A stretch of 64,000 bases of DNA from Malacoraja senta (Eukaryota), in assembly GCA_038087875.1 (NCBI GenBank), contig CM075993.1, positions 1,738,001 through 1,802,000 on the forward strand, read 5' to 3'. Made by a program: the position numbers and the translations under genes. The notes below the pieces were generated by a model, which saw only the letters and a program-made list of their open reading frames with translations, was not told where the DNA came from and did no database searches. Shown in pieces: positions 3,571 to 62,899 of the stretch. Numbering within the stretch: position 1 is the first letter of the stretch; each line of letters begins with the position of its first letter.

Positions 3571-6198
3571 GTATTTGTACACATGACTATGTATTTTATA
3601 TTCTAATCCCCCTTTCCATTGAAATTAAATATTGAATCTTCTGACCCATGGAAAGCAGGAGGGGAACACATTGCCAGGGTCAGTCAGAAAAGCAGCAATA
3701 AGTCAAAACAGTAATAAAATCTCCCTTCACCACATATTTTCACAAACGAGTCAAAATCTAATAGAAAGAAGCTTGAATAAATCATCTTTAAAGAATATAA
3801 TAATATCATGACCTTTTTTTAATTAATTCTAGATAGTATCTAGTGTCCATTCATAACCATTTTGCAAGACTATCGGCCTGGCATAACAGACTGCAAAGAC
3901 AGTAAACCATCCATCCCAATTCTGACCATTCATGAGTCAAGCACTGTCTCAACTGGCATCGCTTCAATGGAATGGAAGTTAAACCTCCAATGTGTTTTCT
4001 TTGACCTGCAGATTGCCTTGAAAAATAAGTTAATTTCAATCATGAATACAATGTTTTACATATTTCAGTCTTGCTTGTTGAAATTTCCAATGCAATAAAA
4101 AATAATAGAAGAAACGAGGTCAGAATTCCACCCCTCTCATCTCAGGAGCAAAGTTAAAGAGGTTTTGCATCTATCTTTCTCTGTATCAGTTTAGATCATT
4201 TTTTTTCTTCCTCACATTAAAAAATGTTTTTTTCCCCACACAGGGGTTTACAAGAATATGTTGAAAAGATTCTAAATCAAAATGTCCTAAGATTACATAT
4301 CACTTGACATCCAAAATAACGAATAAAGGAAACTCAGTACAACTTAGATTGCTGAACTATAAATGGTCAAATGAATAATATTCCATTTGTTGCACGATCT
4401 ATGTGAAATAATAACAAATATGAACATTACCTTAAAGACATGATCCCATTAAAATTAAGCAGGCTATGCCGACTACTTTATGAAAAGCTGATACGATATA
4501 GGAGGCGAAAGTGAATATGGAAAGCAGAGTATAGTTATGGTGTGCTCTAGTCTGTGGGATGGGAAGAATAAGCATGTTGGGGTAGAGATGCAGAGGATTA
4601 AGAAATAATTCTCAGTAGCAGGATCACTGTCTTTAATGATGTACTCACCATCCTGAATGTGGTGTTCTTACAATTAATATCAAATAACTTACCATTAGTA
4701 CTGAAAAATAAAGGATGAAAGGAATACCCTCAAATGAAGAATAATGCAACATTAAACTTTCCATTAACTACAACAGAAGACTAGAAATCATCAACAAATA
4801 TTGTAAATATTCTCTAACATTTCCCACCACTTTAAAATGAAGGCACATGCTACATGCTTTAAATCTTGCTGAACAGCAACTTTTGGGAAAAGGTTATAAT
4901 TCTACCGCATTTTCAAATGTAGATGAAATCTCTTCATGGTGATAAAGGTTGTCCAGATCTCTGAGGTAAAAAGGGTTCCACAAATCTAGCATAATTGCTA
5001 ATACTTATATAGTCATTCTTTCTCTGAACTACCAGATAGAATGCACAAAACGTGATTAACATTTAAGGTTTTTTTTGATGATTAGCAGACTTCACTTTGT
5101 TTAGAGAAGTATGATGAATAAAATCTTTATGTTGGTCTTAGTTGGTTAATATTTTCAATGCTGTGCATTTGCACAATGATAAAATGATATTAGCTCTCTA
5201 GGGGTTATTAGTTAGTTGAAATAGTCATTCAGAAACCATGCAAATCTGGGGCTCAAAACATCTTCTCCCTCATACTCCCAATCAATTCATCTACACACAG
5301 CAAACCTCATGTTTATGGCTTTAAAAAGAAACGTTGTAAAAGTGGAATATATGACCTTCAGCAAACTGCATTTAACATCACTGCAATTCTATCTAAATTG
5401 AAATAACTGCTATATTTGTAATGTCAACTTTTATAAGGTTCAAAATATGCCTAGCTAGTAGAATGCACCATAAAATATTTAATATTCTAGTACTTGGATT
5501 ATGAGCGCACCAAATTTAATCAGTACCAGGATTCAGTATCAAAAATAATTGTAAAACCGCTGTCCTGCACCATTTTGTAATGCCCTGCAGTTGCAGATGC
5601 CAATTAGCATGCGGAGCATCTCTCTTTGCAGTTCGCTATGCCATCTGTCTCGTATCCAGCAAACAGTAAAAATAAAACTTCACATGCACACCCACGCAGG
5701 CATTCATCAGCACTCTAGCGGCTGCCATGACTGCTTCAAAAGAAAATTGATCTGGTTAGCAGCTTTGTGTCCCAAGCACTAAAAGGTTCAATACAATGAT
5801 CGATTAAACACACAACTGCTCAGGCTACAGGGCTCACAATATTCATGGGGAAAGTCAGGAAGAGGAAGGGGGGGGGGGGGGGGGGAGGGGTATACTTAGA
5901 TGGCAAGGGATTTATGGGACACACACATTACAATACATACTACACGATTAATACGGAACTCTGCGTAGTATGGCTTCAATACTGCTTTTTTTTCTAATGG
6001 AAGTTATTCACAAACTAGAGGCATCATGAGGGGGAGAGGCAAGACAAGGTACAATAATCCAGGCATTTCTGGACGATTAAATGGGAGTGCAGGTCTACAA
6101 CATTGTAAATGAGGAGGGTGGTGGGGAAGAATTAAGTAGAGACAAGAGGAAAGGAGCAAGGTCTCAATGACCAGCAGGAACTACTAATGGTACTACTA

Positions 6199-6597
<399 letters not shown>

Positions 6598-12600: not shown

Positions 12601-14020
12601 AAAAGTGGCATTTTGATTTTTGCCCTGGATTTGTCTGCCTGCCACTTTTACTTTTCACCTTGCTACCTATTGCTTCCGCCCGCATTTTACACCCCTCTGT
12701 TTCTCTGCTCACCCATTTAAGAACCCCACCACCTCTTATTCTGTTTATTATTGTTTTCTTCTACCCCCCTACATGTTGGGTCTGAGTGCTTTCCTTCTCT
12801 GCCTCCTGCCTCACACACTGTCTAATAGCATTCTCTATTTGAGTCCCTCCCCCCAACAATTATAGTTTAAAGTCTCCCCAGTAGCCTTTGCAGATCTCCC
12901 CGCCAGGATATCGGTCCCCCTCAGGTTCAAGTGCAACCCATCCTTTTTGTACAGGTCGACCCTTCCACAAAAGAGGTCCCAATGATCCAGAAATTTGAAT
13001 CCCTGCCTTCTGCACCAGTCCTTCAGCCACGCATTTATCCTCCACCTCGCTCCATTCCTACTCTCACTGTCGCGTGGCACAGGCAGTAATCCCGAGATTG
13101 TTACCTTTGCTGTACTTCTCTTTAACTCCCCTCCTAACTCCCTAAATTCTCCTTTCAGGAGGGGAGTTAAAGAGAAGTACAGCAAAGGTAACAATCTCGG
13201 GATTACTGCCTGTGCCACGCGACAGTGAGAGTAGGAATGGAGCGAGGTGGAGGATAAATGCGTGGCTGAAGGACTGGTGCAGAAGGCAGGGATTCAAATT
13301 TCTGGATCTTTTTTTACCTATGTCATTGGTACCTATATGTATCACGACCTCGGGGCTCCTCTCCCTGCCCTTTCAGGATGTCTTGGACACGTTGAGACAC
13401 ATCACAGACCCTGGCACCAGGGAGGCAAACTACCATCCGGGTCTCCCGACTGCGTCCACAGAATCGCCTGTCTGACCCCCTAACTATAGAGTCCCCTATT
13501 AATATTGCCCTCCTCTTCTTTTCCTTACCCTTCTGAGCAACAGGACCGGTCTCTGTATCGGAGGCCCGGCCGCTGTCGCTACCCCCAGGTAGGCTGTCCA
13601 CCCCAACAGTGCTCAAACAGGAGTACTTATTGTCAAGGTGTACAGCCACCGGGGTACTCTCTAGTCCCTGCCTGTGCCCCTTGCCTCTCCCAACCGTGAT
13701 CCACTTGCCTGCCTCCTGTGGTGTTGGAGTGACCACATCCCTGTAACTCCTCTCAATGACTTCCTCGCTCTCCCTGACCAGACGGAGGTCATCGAGCTGC
13801 TGCTCCAGGTTCCTAATACGGTCCATTAGGAGCCCCATCTCGATACACCTGGCGCAGATGTGGACGTCTGGAGGGCTATCAGACTCCATGACTTCCCACA
13901 TCTGACATCCAGAACAGTAAACTGCCCTGGCCCTCATACTCCCCTTACCCGCTCGGGTGTAGCTCCTCCCTCTGCGATCTCTCCAACGGCTCTCAGGCCG
14001 TTGGAGAGATCGTTGGAGAG
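9666..14020 (-). mobile_element. Near full-length CR1-clade LINE, disrupted, in NPTN intron 1 (sense to NPTN)
   Basis: ORF1 from about 13937: CSGC..CARC zinc finger, leucine zipper, GDSIVRG SGNH esterase. ORF2: APE endonuclease (LNARSIRNK, GITETWL, GDFN, SDHN) and RT (GVPQGSVLGP, KFADD), split by frameshifts. 3' end has 8-nt (TATGTATC)n repeats. Confidence 0.95.
12984..13308. repeat. 152-bp inverted duplication with 21-bp spacer inside CR1 ORF1
   Basis: 12984-13135 is the reverse complement of 13157-13308. Confidence 0.92.
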
Positions 14021-29150: not shown

Positions 29151-29749
29151 ACTCTTAGTGCAAATGGAGAATACTCCTTTACTTGCGTAGGAAGGAACTG
29201 CAGATTTGTTGGGGAGGGAAAGAGAGAGGAAGAGAAGAGGGGCCCCAGGGAGGGATAGAAAGAGACAAATGGGCCTAGAAAAGGAGGGAGGTGGAAATGG
29301 ATATATAGATGACAGATGGAGAGGGTGAGGGAGATACCAAGAGATGGAGCCATTTCACCAAAGGCAGCTGCTGGTCACATTAATTTTCAATGGGGAATAC
29401 ATTTGCCATGCGTCCTTAAAAAGAGGCATGGATGAAAGAAAGATAAAAGGGAAAGCAGAAATGTAGATTGAAAATTCCATGGATGTTTCAATGGATTCAA
29501 GTCAGTGGATATTTTTAAGGCTTGATTAGTACGGGTGTCAGGGGTTATGGGGAGAAGGAAGGAGAATGGGGTTAGGAGGGAGAGATAGATCAGCCATGAT
29601 TGAATGGCAGGGTAGACTTGATGGGCCGAATGGCTTAATTCTGCTTCTTTACCTTTATGACCTGATGGCCTTGAATTGACTCCCGCAATCTTGCTATGTC
29701 ATAAGGCCACAAAATGTGTGGTGGAGGTAAATGTTCTCCTCTTTATGGA

Positions 29750-33307: not shown

Positions 33308-33546
33308 GTGCAGGAAGGAACTGCAGATGCCTTACACTGAAGATAGACACAAAATGCTGGAGTAACTCAGTGGGACAGACAGCATCTCTGGAGGGAAGGA
33401 ATAGGTGACATTTCGGGTCGAGACCGTTCTTCAGACACGAAATGTCACCCATTCCTTCCCTCCAGAGATGCTGCCTGTCCCGCTGAGTTACTCCAGCATT
33501 TTGTGTTTATCTTTGATTTAAACCAACATTGCAGTTCTTTCCTGCG
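33308..33546. mobile_element. Palindromic PLE-derived element
   Basis: Long inverted arms, both reaching the GGAA(G)GAACTGCA terminus. Similar copies at about 1670-1800, 36960-37130, 40580-40752, 43025-43415, 44430-44620, 58950-59150, 59185-59320 and 59592-59803. Confidence 0.75.
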
Positions 33547-39073: not shown

Positions 39074-39308
39074 AAGTGCTGGAGAAACTCAGCGGGTGCA
39101 GCAGCATCTATGGAGCGAAGGAAATAGGCAACGTTTCGGCCCGAAACCCTTCGGGTTTCGTCCCGAAACGTTGCCTATTTCCTTCAGGGTTTCGGCCCGA
39201 AACTTTGCCTATTTCCTTCGCTCCGTAGATGCTGCTGCACCCGCTGAGTTTCTCCAGCACTTTTGTCTACCTGCGATTTTCCAGCATCTGCAGTTCCTTC
39301 TTAAACAC
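39074..39308 (+). mobile_element. Mini palindromic PLE derivative, subfamily A, with TSD
   Basis: 14-bp TSD GGATCTGTAGTTCA (39060-39073 and 39309-39322); terminus GTTCCTTCTTAAACAC matches that of the 52279 element. Confidence 0.88.
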
Positions 39309-46165: not shown

Positions 46166-46392
46166 TTTAAGGAGGAACTGCAGATGCTGGAAAATCGAAG
46201 GTAGACAAAAATGCTGGAGAAACTCAGCGGGTGCAGCAGCATCTATGGAGCGAAGGAAATAGGCAACGTTTCGGGCCGAAACCCTGAAGGAAATAGGCAA
46301 CGTTTCGGGACGAAACCCGGAAGGGTTTCGGGCCGAAACGTTGCCTATTTCCCTCGCTCCATAGATGCTGCTGCACCCGCTGAGTTTGTCTA
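46166..46392 (-). mobile_element. Mini palindromic PLE derivative, subfamily A, with TSD
   Basis: Direct repeat GCTAGGATGAAGGG (46152-46165 and 46393-46406); core nearly identical to the reverse complement of the 39074 element. Confidence 0.88.
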
Positions 46393-48758: not shown

Positions 48759-48819
48759 ATGCCCTTCGCCATCTTGCTGGTGTGTTTCGCAATGCCTCTA
48801 CTGCTGGGACTTTGTAGAG
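48759..48819 (+). CDS. CD276: CD276/B7-H3 signal-peptide exon, coding part (MPFAILLVCFAMPLLLGLCR, phase 1); exon probably starts at 48645
   Basis: Hydrophobic 20-aa leader followed by donor G|GTAAGA. G+GA gives Gly in frame with the IgV exon (GLCRG-ALDIQVP). Upstream acceptor CCCTGCAG ends at 48644. Confidence 0.8.
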
Positions 48820-50034: not shown

Positions 50035-53000
50035 ACAACAGGGAGTGTAAAGGAGAAAGAGCTAGAGTTCAGAATATAGTGTTACAGAACTATAGCTTTA
50101 CAGTTACAGAGGAAGTGCAAGAAAAAAATGCAAGTAACACAGTGAGGTAGGGTGGAAGATTGGGACGACACCCCAGCTAATAGTCTAAGGAAATGGTCGA
50201 ACTGTTGATCTACAAACTTGTACTTGCTTGGCACAAACAACCAAAAACAACACACAAGTGATGTGTGTGTGCGAGTGGGTGGGTGTGTGCGCGAGTTGGT
50301 GTGTGAGAACGCAGAGAGTAAGAGAGTGGACGAGATGTAAGAGAGTGGACGAGAGTTTGTGAGGGGGAGCGTGTGCGGGGTAGTGTGTGTGAGAGGGTGT
50401 GTGTGTGCGCGCGTGCACGCGCGTGTGAGCGTGCGCGGGGGAGTGTGAGGGTGAGTGTGGGCGAGTGTGCAAGGGCACTGATGAGTGAGAGGAGCGTACA
50501 GAGAGAGATTCGATCCTGGTGCAGGTTGAATGAGTGTGTGTTGCAGTGGGTAAAGTAAGCGAGGTTTGGGTGACAGATCACACAGCAGTATCTGCTCCTC
50601 TGCCGCAGCCCTGTCACTGTCAAAGGCAAGAATGATGTGGCGTTTGTGAAATGGATTTTAAAGATGGTTCCCATGCTGTGATTACATCTTCTGACCCAGT
50701 TATCCCCAACTATAATATACCATCACTGCCACATTCCATATCCACAATCCATGGTGCCTTTGCTTTCCCGACCTTAGTCTTAAAACAATGATGTAAACAG
50801 TCCTGCAGGGACTGTCTGAGGTAAAATATAGTCCCTGTAAAAGAGCGATTGAAAGACTATAATTCTATCTTGCAGCAGTAATAATAATGCAGGCTGGCTT
50901 TTCTTCTCAGGTTTATGGCAGTTCTAAAACCCCTTAATCAAATAACTCTTAAATTACTTATTTTAACCGTCCACAATCACAGGTTTGTGACACTTCTACG
51001 GGAGTACTCTTGAGGTAGAAGTTCGCTGGTTCAAGTCCCGCACCGGCCTTAAATCTTGACAAGGGCGGCCACGGTGACGCAGCGGTCGAGTTGCTGCCTT
51101 GCAGCGCGTGCACGCTGGAGACCCGGGTTCGATCCCAACTACGGGTGCTGTCTGAACGGAGTTTGCACGTTCTCCCCGTGACCTGCGTGGGTTTTCTCCG
51201 AGATCTTCGGTTTCCTCCCACACTTTCCTCCCACACTTCAAAGACGTACAGGTTTGTAGGTTAATAGGCTTGGTATATAAGTGTAAATTGCCCCTAGTGT
51301 GTACCGCTGAGTTACTCCAGCATTTTGTGTCTATCTTTAAGGTTTCAATTGGCGACTTCACAAGTGTCTGTCTCCACAGACGCTGCCTGGTCTGATGACT
51401 ATGTTCAACAAATTCCAAATTAATTTAGATCTCTACATTCTGTTGCCTTCTCCTTTGGCACGGTAGAACTGCGTAATTAACACTGGGAGAAGATAAACAC
51501 AGCGTTGAGAAAATACAGGCTTTGAATATTTTGTTGTGTTGTGCTCAAATTGCATTTTTAAAAAAAGCTTTGGAATTTTTTATCTGTAAGGAAGCAAGAA
51601 AAGTATATGTAGGCACTAGGAACTGCAGATGTTGGTTTATTTAAAAAAAACAGCAAAGTGCTGGAGTAACTCAGCGGGTCAGGCAGCATCTCTGGAGAAC
51701 ATGAATAGGCGACATTTTGAACTGTGGCTTTGCCCGTGAGGGCTGGTGGGGCAATGGTGCCAAATGAGTACCGGTAGATGGTCTGCATCCATATCTGAGG
51801 AAGGATGTGCTGGCCCTTGAGAGGGTCCAGAGGAGGTTTACAAGAATGATCCCAGGAATGAGTGGGTTTATGAGTGTCTGTCGGCACTGGGCCTGTACTC
51901 GCTGGAGTTTAGAAGAATGAAGGGGGGTGGTGGGGGGTGGCCTGATTGAAACTTACAGAATAGTGAAAGGCTTGGATAGAGTGGATGTGGAGAGGATGTT
52001 TCCACTAGTGGGAGAGTCTAGGACCAGAGGTCGTAGCCTCAGAATTAAAGGACGTTCTTTTAGGAAGGAGGTGAGGAGGAATTTCTTTAGTCAGAGGGTG
52101 GTGAATCTGTGGAATTCTTCGCCACAGAAGGCTGTGGAGGCCAAGTCAATGGATATTTTTGGCAGTGATAGATAGATTCTTGATTAGTACGGGTGTCAGA
52201 GGTTATGGGGAGAAGGCAGGAGAATGGGGTTAGGAGGGAGAGATAGATCAGTCATGATTGAATGGCAGAGTAGACTTGGTGTTAAAGAAGGAACTGCAGA
52301 TGCTGGAAAATCGAAGGTACACAAAAATGCTGGAGAAACTCAGCGGGTGCAGCAGCATCTATGGAGCGAAGGAAATAGGTAACGTTTCGGGCCGAAACCC
52401 TTCTTCAGACTGATAGGGGGTGGGGAGAAGAAAGGAAAAAAGGAAAAGGAGGAGGAGGAGCCCGAGGGTTGGGGGAGGGGAGGAGACAACCAGATGGCTG
52501 ATGAAGGGGAGGGGACAGCCAGGGCTAGCAGAATTGGGAGAATTCAACGTTCAGGCCACCAGGGTGTAGACTGCCCAAGCGGAATATGAGGTGCATTTCC
52601 TCCAATTTACGGTGTTGCTCGCTGTGGCCATGGAGGAGACCCAGGACAGAGAGGTCAGATACGGAATGGGAGGGGGAGTTGAAGTGCTGAGCCACCGGGA
52701 GTTCAGGTTGGTTATTGCGGACCGACCGGAGGTGTTCGGCGAAACGATCGCCAAGCCTCCGCTTGGTCTCACCGATGTAGATCAGCTGGCATCTAGAGCA
52801 GCGAATGCAATAGATGAGGTTGGAGGAGATGCAGGTGAACCTCTGTCGCACCTGGAACGACTGCTTGGGTCCTGGAATGGAGTGGAGGGGGGAAAGTGAA
52901 GGGACAAGTGTTGCATCTCTTGCGGTTGCAAGGGAAAGTACCAGGGGAGGGGGTGGTATGGGAGGGAAGGGAAGAATTGACAAGGGAGTTACGGAGGGAG

Positions 53001-53466
53001 CGGTCTTTGCGGAAGGCAGACATAGGGGGAGATGGGAAGATGTGGCGAGTGGTGGGGTCACGTTGGAGGTGGCGAAACTGACGGAGGATCACTTGTTGTA
53101 TGTGACGGCTGGTGGGGTGAAAGGTGAGGACTAGGGGGACTCTGCCTTTGTTGTGAGTGGGGGGATGGGGAGAGAGAGCAGTGTTGCGGGGTATGGCAGA
53201 GACCCTGGTGCGAGCCTCATCTATGGTGGAGGAGGGGAACCCCCGTTCCCTGAAGAATGAGGACATTTCAGATGCCCTGGTGTGGAACGCCTCATCCTGG
53301 GAGCAGATGCGGCGTAGACGGAGGAATTGGGAGTGGGGGATGGAGTCCTTACAGGAAGCAGGGTGGGAAGAAGTGTAGTCCAGATAGCCATGGGAGTCGG
53401 TAGGTTTGTAGTGGATGTCGGTAAGGAGTCTATCACCTGCGATGGAGATAGTGAGGTCAAGGAATG

Positions 53467-54404
53467 TCCTTGACCTCACTATCTCCATCGCAGGTGATAG
53501 ACTCCTTACCGACATCCACTACAAACCTACCGACTCCCATGGCTATCTGGACTACACTTCTTCCCACCCTGCTTCCTGTAAGGACTCCATCCCCCACTCC
53601 CAATTCCTCCGTCTACGCCGCATCTGCTCCCAGGATGAGGCGTTCCACACCAGGGCATCTGAAATGTCCTCATTCTTCAGGGAACGGGGGTTCCCCTCCT
53701 CCACCATAGATGAGGCTCGCACCAGGGTCTCTGCCATACCCCGCAACACTGCTCTCTCTCCCCATCCCCCCACTCACAACAAAGGCAGAGTCCCCCTAGT
53801 CCTCACCTTTCACCCCACCAGCCGTCACATACAACAAGTGATCCTCCGTCAGTTTCGCCACCTCCAACGTGACCCCACCACTCGCCACATCTTCCCATCT
53901 CCCCCTATGTCTGCCTTCCGCAAAGACCGCTCCCTCCGTAACTCCCTTGTCAATTCTTCCCTTCCCTCCCATACCACCCCCTCCCCTGGTACTTTCCCTT
54001 GCAACCGCAAGAGATGCAACACTTGTCCCTTCACTTCCCCCCTCCACTCCATTCCAGGACCCAAGCAGTCGTTCCAGGTGCGACAGAGGTTCACCTGCAT
54101 CTCCTCCAACCTCATCTATTGCATTCGCTGCTCTAGATGCCAGCTGATCTACATCGGTGAGACCAAGCGGAGGCTTGGCGATCGTTTCGCCGAACACCTC
54201 CGGTCGGTCCGCAATAACCAACCTGAACTCCCGGTGGCTCAGCACTTCAACTCCCCCTCCCATTCCGTATCTGACCTCTCTGTCCTGGGTCTCCTCCATG
54301 GCCACAGCGAGCAACACCGTAAATTGGAGGAAATGCACCTCATATTCCGCTTGGGCAGTCTACACCCTGGTGGCCTGAACGTTGAATTCTCCCAATTCTG
54401 CTAG
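53467..54404 (+). pseudogene. Truncated PLE ORF: RT C-terminus/thumb, Cys-rich linker, GIY-YIG endonuclease
   Basis: LDLTI...YKPTDSHGYLDYTSSHP...SQFLRLRRICS (RT end), CNRKRCNTC linker, NLIYCIRCSRCQLIYIGETKRRLGDRFAEH (GIY-YIG). The mirror copy on the minus arm has a 1-nt insertion near 52893. Confidence 0.9.
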
Positions 54405-54512
54405 CCCTGGCTGTCCCCTCCCCTTCATCAGCCATCTGGTTGTCTCCTCCCCTCCCCCAACCCTCGGGCTCCTCCTCCTCCTTTTCCTTTTTTCCTTTCT
54501 TCTCCCCACCCC

Positions 54513-54556
54513 CTATCAGTCTGAAGAAGGGTTTCGGCCCGAAACGTTACCTATTT
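54513..54556 (+). ncRNA. Minimal type I hammerhead ribozyme motif in the PLE terminal repeat (mirror copy about 52373-52416, minus)
   Basis: CUGAAGA-A-GGGU(UUCG)GCCC-GAAA-CGUU with palindromic AACGUU at helix III, as in PLE hammerheads; proximal helix I only 2 bp. Confidence 0.65.
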
Positions 54557-55039
54557 CCTTCGCTCCATAGATGCTGCTGCACCCGCTGAGTTTCTCCAGC
54601 ATTTTTGTGTACCGGCAGAGTAGACTTGATGGGCCGAATGGCCCAATTCTACTCCTATCACTTATGACCTTATGACCAGGCAGCATCTCTGGCGAGAAGG
54701 AATGAGTTGGGGTTTCTTCTATCTAACTTCAATCGAGGATATCTCAGTGATAGCAGCTTTCTCTTTAATTTGCAGTAACATATTTCTAATAAGCACCCAC
54801 TTGAGCATGTGATGGGATGTGTGTGATCACCCAGTGGCCTGCAGCACCGCTGGTAATCAACATTACTATTATTCATTGAAAGACAGAAATATTTGTCTGA
54901 TGAAAAGGAATCAGTGGCTCAGATGGAAAGCTGGTATCTTTAATGTTAGGTTTTAGAGTTACTGCGTGGAAACAGGCCCTTCGGCCCACTGAGTCTGCGC
55001 TGACCAGTGATCCCCACACATTAACACTATCCTACACAC

Positions 55040-55439: not shown

Positions 55440-55647
55440 TGCCCCTGTCCCACTTAGGAAACCTGAACGGAAACCTCTGGAGACTTTGCGCCCCACCCAA
55501 GGTTTCCGTGCGGTTCCCGGAGGTTTTTGTCAGTCTTCCGACCTGCTTCCACTACCTGCAGCCTCCGGCAACCACCTGCAACCTCCGGGAACCGCATGGA
55601 AACCTTGGGTGGGGCGCAAAGTCTCCAGAGGTTTCCGTTCAGGTTTC
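55440..55647. mobile_element. Harbinger-like foldback MITE lacking its right tip, inserted in a SINE head
   Basis: Starts GCCCCTGTCCCACT; 68-bp inverted arms 55458-55525 and 55580-55647. Confidence 0.75.
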
Positions 55648-57506: not shown

Positions 57507-58134
57507 ACAGAGTGCTGGAGTAACTTAGTAAGGCAGGCAGCATCTGTGGAGAACATGGATAGGTGACGTTTCACAGAGTGCTGGAGTAACTCAGCGGGTC
57601 AGGCAGCATCTGTGGAGCGAAGGAAATGGGCAACCTTTCGGGCCGAAACCCTGAAGGAAATAGGCAACGTTTTAGGCCGAAACCCGGAAGGGTTTCGGGC
57701 CGAAACGTTGCCTATTTCCTTCGCTCTATAGATGCTGCCGGAACATGGATAGGTGACGTTTCACAGAGTGCTGGAGTAACTCGGCGGGTCAGGCAGCATC
57801 TGTGGAGAACATGGATAGGTGACGTTTCACAGAGTGCTGGAGTAACTCAGCGGGTCAGGCAGCATCTGTGGAGAACATGGATAGGTGACGTTTCACAGAG
57901 TGCTGGAGTAACTCAGCGGGTCAGGCAGCATCTGTGGAGCGAAGGAAATGGGCAACCTTTCGGGCCGAAACCCTGAAGGAAATAGGCAACGTTTTAGGCC
58001 GAAACCCGGAAGGGTTTCGGGCCGAAACGTTGCCTATTTCCTTCGCTCTATAGATGCTGCCGGAACATGGATAGGTGACGTTTCACAGAGTGCTGGAGTA
58101 ACTCAGCGGGTCAGGCAGCATCTCTGGGGAACAT
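57507..58134. repeat. Higher-order tandem array built from PLE terminal repeats (66-bp monomer, 322-bp higher-order period)
   Basis: ACAGAGTGCTGGAG starts at 57507, 57573, 57763, 57829, 57895 and 58085; two 190-bp units contain the subfamily A mini-palindrome core. Confidence 0.88.
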
Positions 58135-60315: not shown

Positions 60316-60666
60316 GAGCTCTGGACATCCAGGTTCCAGTCGACCCAGTGATTGCCCGCTACGGGGAGGATGTCACGCTGAACTGCTCGTTCACCCTGGA
60401 GGGCAACTTCTCCTTGGGGGACGTGAGCGTGATCTGGCAGTTGACCGAGACAAAGACCATGGTGCACAGCTACTCCCGGCAGTGGGACGTGCAAAGCGAG
60501 CAGGCGGAGAGCTTCGTCAACCGGACGGCCATGTTCCTGGACCAGCTGGGCAAGGGCAACGCCTCGCTGCTGTTGAGGAAGGTGAAGATTGAAGACGAAG
60601 GCAGCTTCACCTGCTTCGTCCGCGTCGAAGACCACAACAGTGCCCCCATCATGCTCCAACTAGCAG
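60316..60666 (+). CDS. CD276: CD276/B7-H3 IgV exon (351 nt, phase 1-1)
   Basis: ALDIQVPVDPVIARYGEDVTLNCSF...IWQLTETKTMVHSY...NRTAMFLDQLGKGNASLLLRKVKIEDEGSFTCFV matches B7-H3 IgV. Acceptor TTGCAG, donor G|GTACCG. Confidence 0.93.
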
Positions 60667-60779
60667 GTACCGTATACTATCCTAAACATACTTCCAAATC
60701 TGACGTGGAACATAGAACGCTACAGCACAAAGATACAGGAAAGATATTGTCAAACTTCAAAGGGTTCAGAAAAGATTTA

Positions 60780-61079
60780 AAGCCCTGTCCCACGGTTAAA
60801 GTTCATTCCAAGAGCTCTCTCGAGTTTGCCCTGATTCGAACTCGGAGATTTACGGTAATGGCTCTCGTGGACATTTTTCATCATGTTGTAAAATCTTCAC
60901 GAGTCTTCCCGTGCATACCTGCCGTTAGCGAGTCTTCCCGAGTACCTGCCGTTAGCGCTAAGAGACGTCCCCGAGCTCCGACGTACCCGCTACGTTCATT
61001 CTCCGTGCTTACCACGAGTTTTATTTTTTTAAAACTCAGGAGAACTCTTGGAATGAACTCGTACCGTGGGACAGGGCTT
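60780..61079. mobile_element. PIF/Harbinger-type MITE
   Basis: TIRs AAGCCCTGTCCCACGGT / ACCGTGGGACAGGGCTT plus subterminal inverted repeats; TTA TSD (60777-60779 and 61080-61082); interrupts a LINE fragment. Confidence 0.88.
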
Positions 61080-62602
61080 TTACGAGGATGTTGCCAGGGC
61101 TAGAGGGTGTGAGCTATAGGGAGAGGTTGAATAGGCTGGGTCTCTATTCCATGGAGCGCAGGAGGATGAGGGGTGATCTTGTAGAGGTGTACAAAATCAT
61201 GAGAGGAATAGATCGGGTAGATGCACAGAGTCTCTTTCCCAGAGTAGGGGAATCGAGGACCAGAGGACATAGGTTCAAGGTGATTGGGAAAAGATTTAAC
61301 AGGAATCTGAGGGGTAACCTTTTCACACAAAGGGTGGTGGGTGTATGGAACAAGCAGCCAGAGAAGGTAGTTGAGGCTGGGACTATCCCAACGTTTAAGA
61401 AGCAGTTGGACAGGTACATTGATAGTACAGGTTTGGAGGGATATGGACCAAGAGTAGGCAAGTGTGTAGCTGGGACTTGTTGGTCGGTGTGGGCGAGTTG
61501 GGCCGAAGGGACTGTTTCCACGCTGTATCACTCTACGACACAAGAACTTACCCTTCGGCCCACAATGTCCGTGCCGAACATGATGTCAAGACCATCTTTT
61601 ACCTGCCTGTCTGAGATCCATATCCCTCCATTCACTGCAAGTATGTCAATCCAAAAGCCTCTTAAATGCCGCCATCATATCTGCCTCCACCACCACCCCT
61701 GGCAGCGCGCTCCTGGGATTCATCACTCTGTGTAAAGACTGTGTAATCACTCTCTTGCTATTTGATTATTCCATCCTAGGGGAAAAGGCTCTGACTGTCT
61801 ACCCTATCTACACCTCTTATTATTTTATATACTTCGATCAAGTCTCCCTTCAATCTTCAACATTTTATGTTTGTTTGTGATAGGAGCAGAATTTGGCTAT
61901 CCAGGTGTACTCCGCCATTCAATCATGGCTGATCTATCTCTCCCTCCTAACCCCATTCTCCTGCCTTTTCTCCATAACCCCTGGCACCCATACTAATCAA
62001 GAATCTATCTATCTCTGCCTTAAAAATATCCACTGACTTGGCCTCCACAGCCTTCTGTGGCAAAGAATTCCACAGATTCACCGCCCTCTGACTGAAGAAA
62101 TTCTTCCCAAAAGAACGTCCTTTAACTCTGAGGCTGTGACCTCTAGTCCTGGACTCTCCCACTAGTGGACAAAACCTCTCCACATCCACTCTATCCAGCC
62201 CTTTCACTATTATGTATGTTTCAATGAGGCCCCCCCTCATTCTTCTAAACTCCAGCGAGTACAGGCCCAGTGCCGACAAACGCTCATCATAGGTTAACCC
62301 ACTCATTCCTGGGATCGTTCTCGTAAACCTCCTCTGGACCCTCTCCAGGGCCAGCACATCCTTCCTCATAGAAACATAGAGACATAGAAAATATGTGCAG
62401 GTGTAGGCCATTCGGCCCTCCCAGCCAGCACCGCCATTCAATATGATCATGGCTGATCATCCAGAATCAGTGCTCCGTTCCTGCTTTCTCCCCATATCCC
62501 TTGATTCCATTAGCCCCAGGAGCTAAGTCTAACTCTCTGTTGACAGGGCACAAGCCCTCAGATGTGGTTCCACCATGCTGATGCCCCCACCTCTTCTTTC
62601 AG

Positions 62603-62899
62603 CCTCTTACTCCAAGCCCAACCTGCACCTGGAACCCAACAAGAACCTGAAGCCTGGAGATGAGGTGAGCATTGCCTGCCATTCCTCGGGGGGCTACCCA
62701 CAGGCAACGGTGCTGTGGTTCGACGGGAAGGGGGGCAACATCACGGACAACGTCAGCACCTCGCAGGTGGCCAACGAGCGGGGCCTGTTCGCGGTGCGCA
62801 GCGTGATGCGAGTCATCCTGGAGCCCAACAGCTCCTACAGCTGCACGGTGAGGAACGAGCTACTGGGTGAGGAGACCCATGCTGCCGCCACCATCACAG
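62603..62899 (+). CDS. CD276: CD276/B7-H3 IgC exon (297 nt, phase 1-1)
   Basis: SYSKPNLHLEPNKNLKPGDEVSIACHSSGGYPQATVLWFDGKG...NVSTSQVANERGLF...YSCTVRN matches B7-H3 IgC. Acceptor TTCTTTCAG, donor G|GTCAGT. TM and cytoplasmic exons not seen in the window. Confidence 0.93.

Follow-up and report, generated by a model that had tools for sequence, protein, structure and literature searches.

Background

Insertions of Penelope-like elements (PLEs) are described as an inverted, 5'-truncated copy lying next to the 5' end, with a tail of 30-40 bp 'at either end' (Craig et al. 2021, PMC8557442), and head-to-head PLE units with palindromic junctions, a tail and a target-site duplication (TSD) have been reported, for which self-priming was proposed (Arkhipova et al. 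2013, PMC3846280). How PLEs make their inverted copies was presented as still open in the part of PMC8557442 available to us, and the available parts of PMC8969392 and PMC7599744 contained general statements only. Here we analysed a palindromic PLE insertion of ~2.3 kb in an intron of CD276 in the skate Malacoraja senta, located at 52279-54613 of a 64,000-nucleotide stretch of contig CM075993.1 (assembly GCA_038087875.1, positions 1,738,001 to 1,802,000, forward strand; hereafter the window), of which a preliminary description had been made. A head-to-head inverted copy with a tail and a TSD is the documented norm for PLEs and no oddity; the inverted configuration with a short 3' extension, which the preliminary description had given as a PLE trait, is found both in these two accounts and in sibling units of the window. 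The skate insert is a clean, extreme example of this described insertion type, and its value is mechanistic.

As far as the available accounts go, canonical endonuclease-positive (EN+) PLE insertions share with the skate locus the head-to-head inverted copy adjoining the 5' end, the one-sided tail, the TSD around the unit and the palindrome at the junction, together with a C-terminal GIY-YIG domain with CCHH residues and, putatively in the skate, a hammerhead near the 3' end. The examples in these accounts show short inverted pseudo-long terminal repeats (pLTRs) and junction palindromes of 18-38 bp, and the rotifer TSDs are 8-10 bp compared with 15 in the skate. In the skate insert, by contrast, both copies are cut at nearly the same point, so that all 2.3 kb of the insert form a single hairpin around a 3-nt loop. 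Inversions inside a single TSD are also made by LINE-1 (long interspersed nuclear element 1) in twin priming, where the second overhang primes a second cDNA. The LINE-1 reaction inverts a non-overlapping upstream segment from a chance internal site, whereas the second copy in the skate starts at a fixed site and covers the same 3' end again.

A biochemical parallel is provided by PAc, a Poseidon PLE from the green anole (Frangieh et al. 2024, PMC11167929), for which the available text reports that both target strands are cleaved and extended in vitro, that reverse transcription starts at two sites bracketing the tail downstream of the hammerhead, and that the protein is a predicted dimer. PAc belongs to a different clade, and the skate target is not AT-rich. 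Inverted insertions are not discussed in the available part of that paper, where the sole 'inverted' is a blocking dT.

Structure of the insert

The features of the insert and its target were as follows, with LINE standing for long interspersed nuclear element, RT for reverse transcriptase and ORF for open reading frame.

51796..54677 (+): target, an older LINE-like 3' fragment, split as 51796-52278 and 54629-54677 (sequence comparison)
52264..52278 (+): left TSD copy (15 bp), lying within the terminal 3' part of the older LINE-like fragment, which has an uninterrupted paralogue at 29521-29670
52279..52315 (-): tail of 37 nt, the extreme 3' end of the element, on the left arm only; the same sequence terminates sibling units at 39308 and 46166
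52316..53463 (-): left arm of 1148 nt, the antisense, 5'-truncated 3' end of the PLE, with an extra A at 52893
52381..52408 (-): left-arm core of a putative minimal hammerhead (CUGAAGA, stem II, GAAAC-GUU; helix I of 2 bp only), recognised by eye, with an architecture like that given in the available part of PMC4209133
53464..53466 (-): loop ATG of 3 nt, the natural continuation of the tail-bearing left arm (alignment of the FLD motif to homologues)
53467..54613 (+): right arm, the identical 3' end in sense and without the tail, its frame open as far as the stop at 54404
53467..54404 (+): C-terminal part of the PLE ORF (~310 aa), comprising the RT end, the thumb, a CX4CXXC linker and GIY-YIG with CCHH (Pfam, homologues, alignment)
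54521..54548 (+): right-arm core of the putative minimal hammerhead (sequence)
54614..54628 (+): right copy of the 15-bp TSD, an exact repeat of 52264-52278

The 64-kb window contains no N. Global alignment of 52316-53463 with the reverse complement of 53467-54613 gave 0 substitutions and one gap between arms of 1148 and 1147 nt, the only difference being the extra A at 52893 of the left arm, which follows a run of six G. The near-perfect palindrome with its 3-nt spacer and 1-nt indel, the exact 15-bp TSD and the 37-bp tail confined to one side were thus all confirmed as the preliminary description had given them. The paralogue of the target, a repeat that we take to be CR1-like, has the TSD letters once only, and the 15-nt repeat is therefore a true duplication. 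The three letters of the loop could also be assigned to one side. They give xCA-TTC, that is (T/P/S)-F, of the conserved FLD motif, the left arm reading FLD and the right arm VLD; FLD was present in nine of ten aligned homologues, NFLD in the tenth, and the F in all ten. With the tail on the left arm and a loop native to the same arm, the tail-bearing arm is the longer at both ends.

A perfect palindrome might also be created by the assembly, either from a single true arm or from a unit whose real asymmetry was lost, or whose arms were homogenised, in consensus calling. None of the 24 contig pieces listed, obtained with the left flank and left arm as query, bridges either junction or the centre, the perfect identity of the arms could come from polishing, and the sole indel stands in a homopolymer context. 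A chimeric fold-back read, however, would mirror the flank, whereas here the interrupted LINE continues in the right flank precisely where the 15-nt duplication ends; the tail and the native loop are biologically placed asymmetries common to the siblings; and the unique left flank agrees with sequencing run X1 at 400 of 400 letters. An artefact is thus highly improbable. If the structure is real, a 2.3-kb perfect palindrome in a vertebrate intron is a case in which palindrome stability and the handling of intronic double-stranded RNA (dsRNA) can be examined in nature.

Identity of the element

The Penelope-like identity put forward in the preliminary description held, through GIY-YIG with CCHH, the linker, the inverted copy with a tail, and the TSD. 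The GIY-YIG domain was matched in Pfam at E=2.9e-4 with 21.5 bits, slightly below the gathering cut-off of 22.6, and alignment to homologues placed two Cys between LIY and YIG together with two His. There were 80 longer homologues of the arm ORF at E<=1e-20, in most of which RVT_1 lies upstream in the same ORF; the insert retains only the end of the RT and the thumb, its catalytic core being truncated away. Ahead of GIY-YIG, the right-arm ORF has a C-X4-C-XX-C linker, and the left-arm frame is shifted by the extra A before the GIY-YIG domain. In the clade definitions of PMC8557442, as far as available, a CX2-5CxxC linker is found in Neptune/Nematis and is absent from Penelope/Poseidon. From these sequence features the arms are classed as the 5'-truncated 3' end of a Neptune/Nematis-type PLE with a C-terminal endonuclease, the likeness being the C-X4-C-XX-C linker before GIY-YIG and the difference being the missing RT core, and the clade type is read from the linker. 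Assignment to the Penelope/Poseidon clade was rejected on account of the linker's Zn-finger-like motif, and a DNA transposon, MITE or fold-back element on account of the 37-nt unpaired tail at one end and of arms that encode an RT thumb and GIY-YIG. The insert has neither the direct repeat (direct pLTR) nor the full ORF by which an autonomous PLE copy is recognised. The copy is accordingly classed as a dead, truncated, RT-less insertion, which lowers any case for an active element and leaves family membership untouched.

The putative hammerhead core precedes the tail-less end by 65 nt and the tail end by 102 nt. By eye it has the core, an extra base before stem II, a G-C pair and a palindromic ACGU, with a helix I of only 2 bp. 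No hammerhead was among the eight Rfam hits of the insert search, and in the minimum free energy fold stem II formed and the ribozyme fold did not. The Rfam hits of microRNA type were rejected, since all eight lie below the gathering scores and the top ones are generic microRNA hairpins matching the centre of the palindrome. In a pre-mRNA the hammerhead cores of the two arms would be expected to pair with one another.

Proposed mechanism of insertion

We propose that the insert arose in a single retrotransposition event of a young, abundant Neptune/Nematis-type PLE. The GIY-YIG endonuclease would have cut each target strand, with a stagger of 15 nt that left two 3' overhangs; here the TSD is observed and the geometry of the cuts follows from it by supposition. 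Synthesis of cDNA on the element RNA would then have been primed by each overhang, by one from the start at the end of the tail and by the other from a second start 37 nt inside. The tail-primed cDNA would have stopped after 1188 nt, snapped back around the 3-nt loop and been copied into sense DNA, which would finally have met the cDNA from the other overhang and closed the gap. To this combination of two-start priming with snap-back of the tail-primed cDNA we give about an even chance.

Its two parts rest on different evidence. The two outer ends are best explained by two primings, to judge from the tail-side counts given below and from the two start sites of the anole enzyme. The inner joint of the insert in the CD276 intron was probably made by snap-back, because its inner ends lie no more than 3 nt from agreement and share 1 nt of microhomology at most, which favours snap-back at this locus; by our own estimate, two independent stops would fall within 3 nt of each other over ~1.2 kb in ~0.6% of cases. 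Moreover, a tail-bearing arm that is longer at both ends and continues into a native loop is what snap-back of a tail-primed cDNA requires.

Tail position in related loci

The side on which the tail stands relative to the longer arm provides a simple count that separates models of PLE insertion, and one that can be used on any long-read skate or shark assembly. It was applied to 80 loci encoding relatives of the PLE ORF, 76 of them from one record series; this comparison family differs from that of the skate, with 39-59% best-segment protein identity. Head-to-head pairs were found in 12 loci and none in the other 68 (an earlier, looser screen had given 19 of 80), and ten pairs could be scored after L042 and L020 had been left out because of contig edges. 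In all ten, exactly one arm had the conserved family tail (~55 nt). It stood on the shorter arm in six (one partial) and on the longer arm in four, a proportion that does not differ from one half (p=0.75) and is incompatible with zero; the omitted L020 resembles a seventh case with the tail on the short arm. A direct repeat of 13-16 nt was present at the predicted ends of nine of the ten pairs, L069 being the pair without a TSD, compared with 0 of 42 cross pairs, and the related pairs are therefore single insertions. In 12 of 12 loci the two arms resembled one another more than either did the median other copy, and in five of the six long-arm loci the partner arm was not surpassed in closeness by any other copy, which points to one template or master, or to later conversion.

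The tail-less end of the related family falls within ~6 nt of one site. It follows a TTTTGTGT-like motif in the skate insert (54613) and in the related L004, L009, L052 and L054, and its recurrence after this motif in both families indicates a fixed site. The TTTTGTGT-like motif is perhaps a conserved signal for the start of reverse transcription.

These counts bear on fold-back priming, by which the preliminary description had explained the whole hairpin. In its pure form a single tail-primed cDNA copies itself, and an endonuclease cut or repair leaves the second arm 37 nt short. The nested geometry of the locus in the CD276 intron fits such a course, and to that extent the claim stood; self-priming was proposed for palindromic PLE junctions in the part of PMC3846280 available to us, and endonuclease-mediated resolution for the tail in that of PMC8557442. 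Under pure fold-back, however, the longer arm should carry the tail in every case. Six of ten related pairs, with the tail on the shorter arm, are incompatible with this, because a tail-primed cDNA cannot template a longer arm, and among the older hairpins of related PLE families in the window, of which there are at least nine (nine were examined), the tail-less arm is the longer in two of the five with a single tail, clearly so in one (19.2 kb). In addition, the tail-less end is fixed, and the tail boundary coincides with a start site of reverse transcription in vitro according to the available text of PMC11167929. As a general account fold-back alone did not hold, and as the sole origin of the skate insert it is improbable.

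The inner joints of the related pairs bear on a course without any fold-back, in which both overhangs prime the same RNA, the first cDNA is stripped off by the RT of the tail-primed copy, and both copies run off at the same break or stop and are joined bluntly with a 3-nt difference. Such twin priming would give one mechanism for the identical arms, the equal inner ends, the one-sided tail and the TSD as well as for the loci with the tail on the short arm, and the arm-private extra A would be natural as an RT slip. Nor does it need microhomology: an overlap of at least 4 nt was present at four of 17 related inner joints compared with 22 of 400 random ones, and 11 of the 17, without overlap, had filler or unassigned letters, partly from divergence. 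Both copies must nonetheless end within 3 nt, whereas 12 of 12 related pairs are very unequal, albeit in a biased set, and displacement of a strand on a single RNA is not shown for a PLE RT in the available parts of PMC11167929 and the other work cited here. We consider twin priming with blunt joining the leading alternative for the skate insert, though a rather unlikely one. As a separate observation, short stuttered re-copies of nearby element sequence, as if from repeated template jumps, were seen at the inner joints L044:4940-5000, L069:2044-2100 and L022:612-670.

Several points weigh against two-start priming with snap-back. Snap-back and end-joining of two cDNAs leave an identical junction, with at most 1 nt of possible microhomology here, and the related inner joints, with so few overlaps and so much filler, look more like end-joining. 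None of the 12 related pairs is near-symmetric (loops 395-1188 nt), perhaps since assembly loses perfect palindromes. If the left arm was the template, the extra A on it has to be put down to later mutation or to a sequencing error. In the in vitro work, in the available account of PMC11167929, the start site was the same for both strands. Finally, the tail-side counts come from a different family and overwhelmingly from one record series, and we infer that they can be transferred from that distant family to the skate family.

More generally, head-to-head PLE insertions may be products of a PLE-specific twin target-primed reaction with two fixed starts on the same RNA, in which the tail only marks the start that was used and whole-insert palindromes are the limiting case; this we put forward tentatively, at a little short of an even chance. 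If true, twin priming by PLEs would connect the in vitro findings of 2024 with the inverted structures in genomes that have long lacked an explanation, and bursts of young skate PLEs would be a standing source of kilobase-long perfect dsRNA in introns. A statement linking two-site in vitro priming to inverted PLE insertions was not found in the literature searched, subscription papers and supplements excepted.

Sibling units in the window

Two miniature units of the same PLE family lie upstream of the insert.

39074..39308 (unstranded): miniature head-to-head sibling with a 14-bp TSD and the tail on the right, of the same PLE family
46166..46392 (unstranded): miniature head-to-head sibling with a 14-bp TSD and the tail on the left, its inner turn being that of the 39-kb unit save one base

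A degraded tandem pair of miniature hairpins (57579-57740 and 57901-58062) lies near 57.6 kb. The miniatures at these three independent sites (39.1, 46.2 and 57.6 kb) have in common the inner turn, a 33-nt duplication and a flipped central base of the palindrome in hammerhead stem II, which suggests that they are copies of a non-autonomous unit with an inherited turn.

Turns are thus heritable in the skate family, and the large insert might likewise descend from a palindromic master whose turn was made once elsewhere and whose hairpin RNA then moved in one piece by retrotransposition. However, the large unit has its tail-less end exactly at the canonical boundary, whereas the ends of the miniatures are scattered, and the lack of any strand-change joint among the 15 joints listed speaks weakly in the same direction. 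A perfect RNA duplex of 1.15 kb is, furthermore, a poor template for reverse transcription. There is accordingly only a slight chance that the large insert was copied from such a master.

Among the older hairpins, that at 33312-33543 has a tail on both arms, which fits both primings having occurred at the tail-end site. PLE ends also form a 322-bp tandem duplication (97%) at 57507-58134, with an inner 66-bp triplication.

Age and abundance

With 0 substitutions in 1147 positions, divergence between the arms is bounded at <0.26%, roughly a twentieth of the divergence from the closest relative that was measured; the unique left flank, identical in run X1 as mentioned above, differs from two relatives at 36 of 393 and 18 of 355 letters (5-9%). 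From its identical flank, X1 is probably of the species analysed here and may even come from the source sample. At the rate of 7e-10 per generation given for the epaulette shark in the available part of PMC10587355, the same bound corresponds by our own arithmetic to up to ~1.9 million generations, and gene conversion or polishing could mask further divergence. The preliminary description had called the insertion very young. That it is young can be held with fair confidence from the comparison of arms and flanks, but 'very young' is only loosely bounded.

In each of the three contig sets, the depth summed over the arm was very high. In X1 the summed depth was 2.1-4.5 million on most bins of the arm compared with 31-42 on the unique flank, in a survey covering 4 of the 24 runs listed, with the left flank and left arm as query, where paralogues dominate and the figures mean 'very abundant' rather than a copy number. 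Among ten listed arm positions, the contig sets of the relatives and a relative's RNA reads mostly carry another letter than the arm, whereas X1 has that letter in only 2-86% of its depth, which points to a lineage-specific young PLE subfamily. An apparent empty allele, with 1,102 RNA reads of run X22 leaving the sequence at 52278, was rejected, as the reads came from uninterrupted LINE copies of another species. Among the runs listed for the flank there was no RNA run of the skate itself, a result with no bearing on expression. A 32-letter pattern for the ends of the skate element gave 0 loci in metagenome and viral contigs.

The host intron

Exons of CD276 were located by tblastn with eight chondrichthyan CD276 proteins.

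48759..48819 (+): CD276 signal-peptide coding exon, upstream of the insert (tblastn, GT/AG sites)
60316..60666 (+): CD276 IgV exon, downstream of the insert (tblastn, GT/AG sites)
62603..62899 (+): CD276 IgC exon (tblastn)

The IgV exon was 88% identical to CD276 of Amblyraja radiata, the best of 42 hits. The insert lies between the signal-peptide and IgV exons, with GT/AG borders, in the middle of an intron of 11.5 kb, the donor being ~3.5 kb before it and the acceptor ~5.7 kb after it, and its placement in a CD276 intron by the preliminary description was correct. The same intron also carries several smaller PLE hairpins. On the + strand of the insert there is no AATAAA or ATTAAA, and two pyrimidine-AG motifs are present at 53691 and 54414, as sequence motifs only. 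By complementarity alone, read-through of the intron would yield a duplex of ~1.15 kb in the CD276 pre-mRNA, and the consequence of the hairpin for the host is probably slight; the cruciform, ADAR-editing, siRNA and splicing effects suggested in the preliminary description are speculative.

Other features of the window

An inverted duplication of 155 bp (99%, with a 21-nt loop) at 12981-13311 lies in a long LINE copy, within its upstream ORF region, and is not PLE-derived by blastn. Short inverted-repeat units at 55458-55647 and 60779-61080 have no match to the PLE end and are possibly DNA-transposon remnants. An Ig-domain exon of a second gene, presumably neuroplastin-like, is present at 6196-6597 (-), and a GC-rich island with a 22-bp C/T array lies at 27-29 kb, between CD276 and this second Ig gene.

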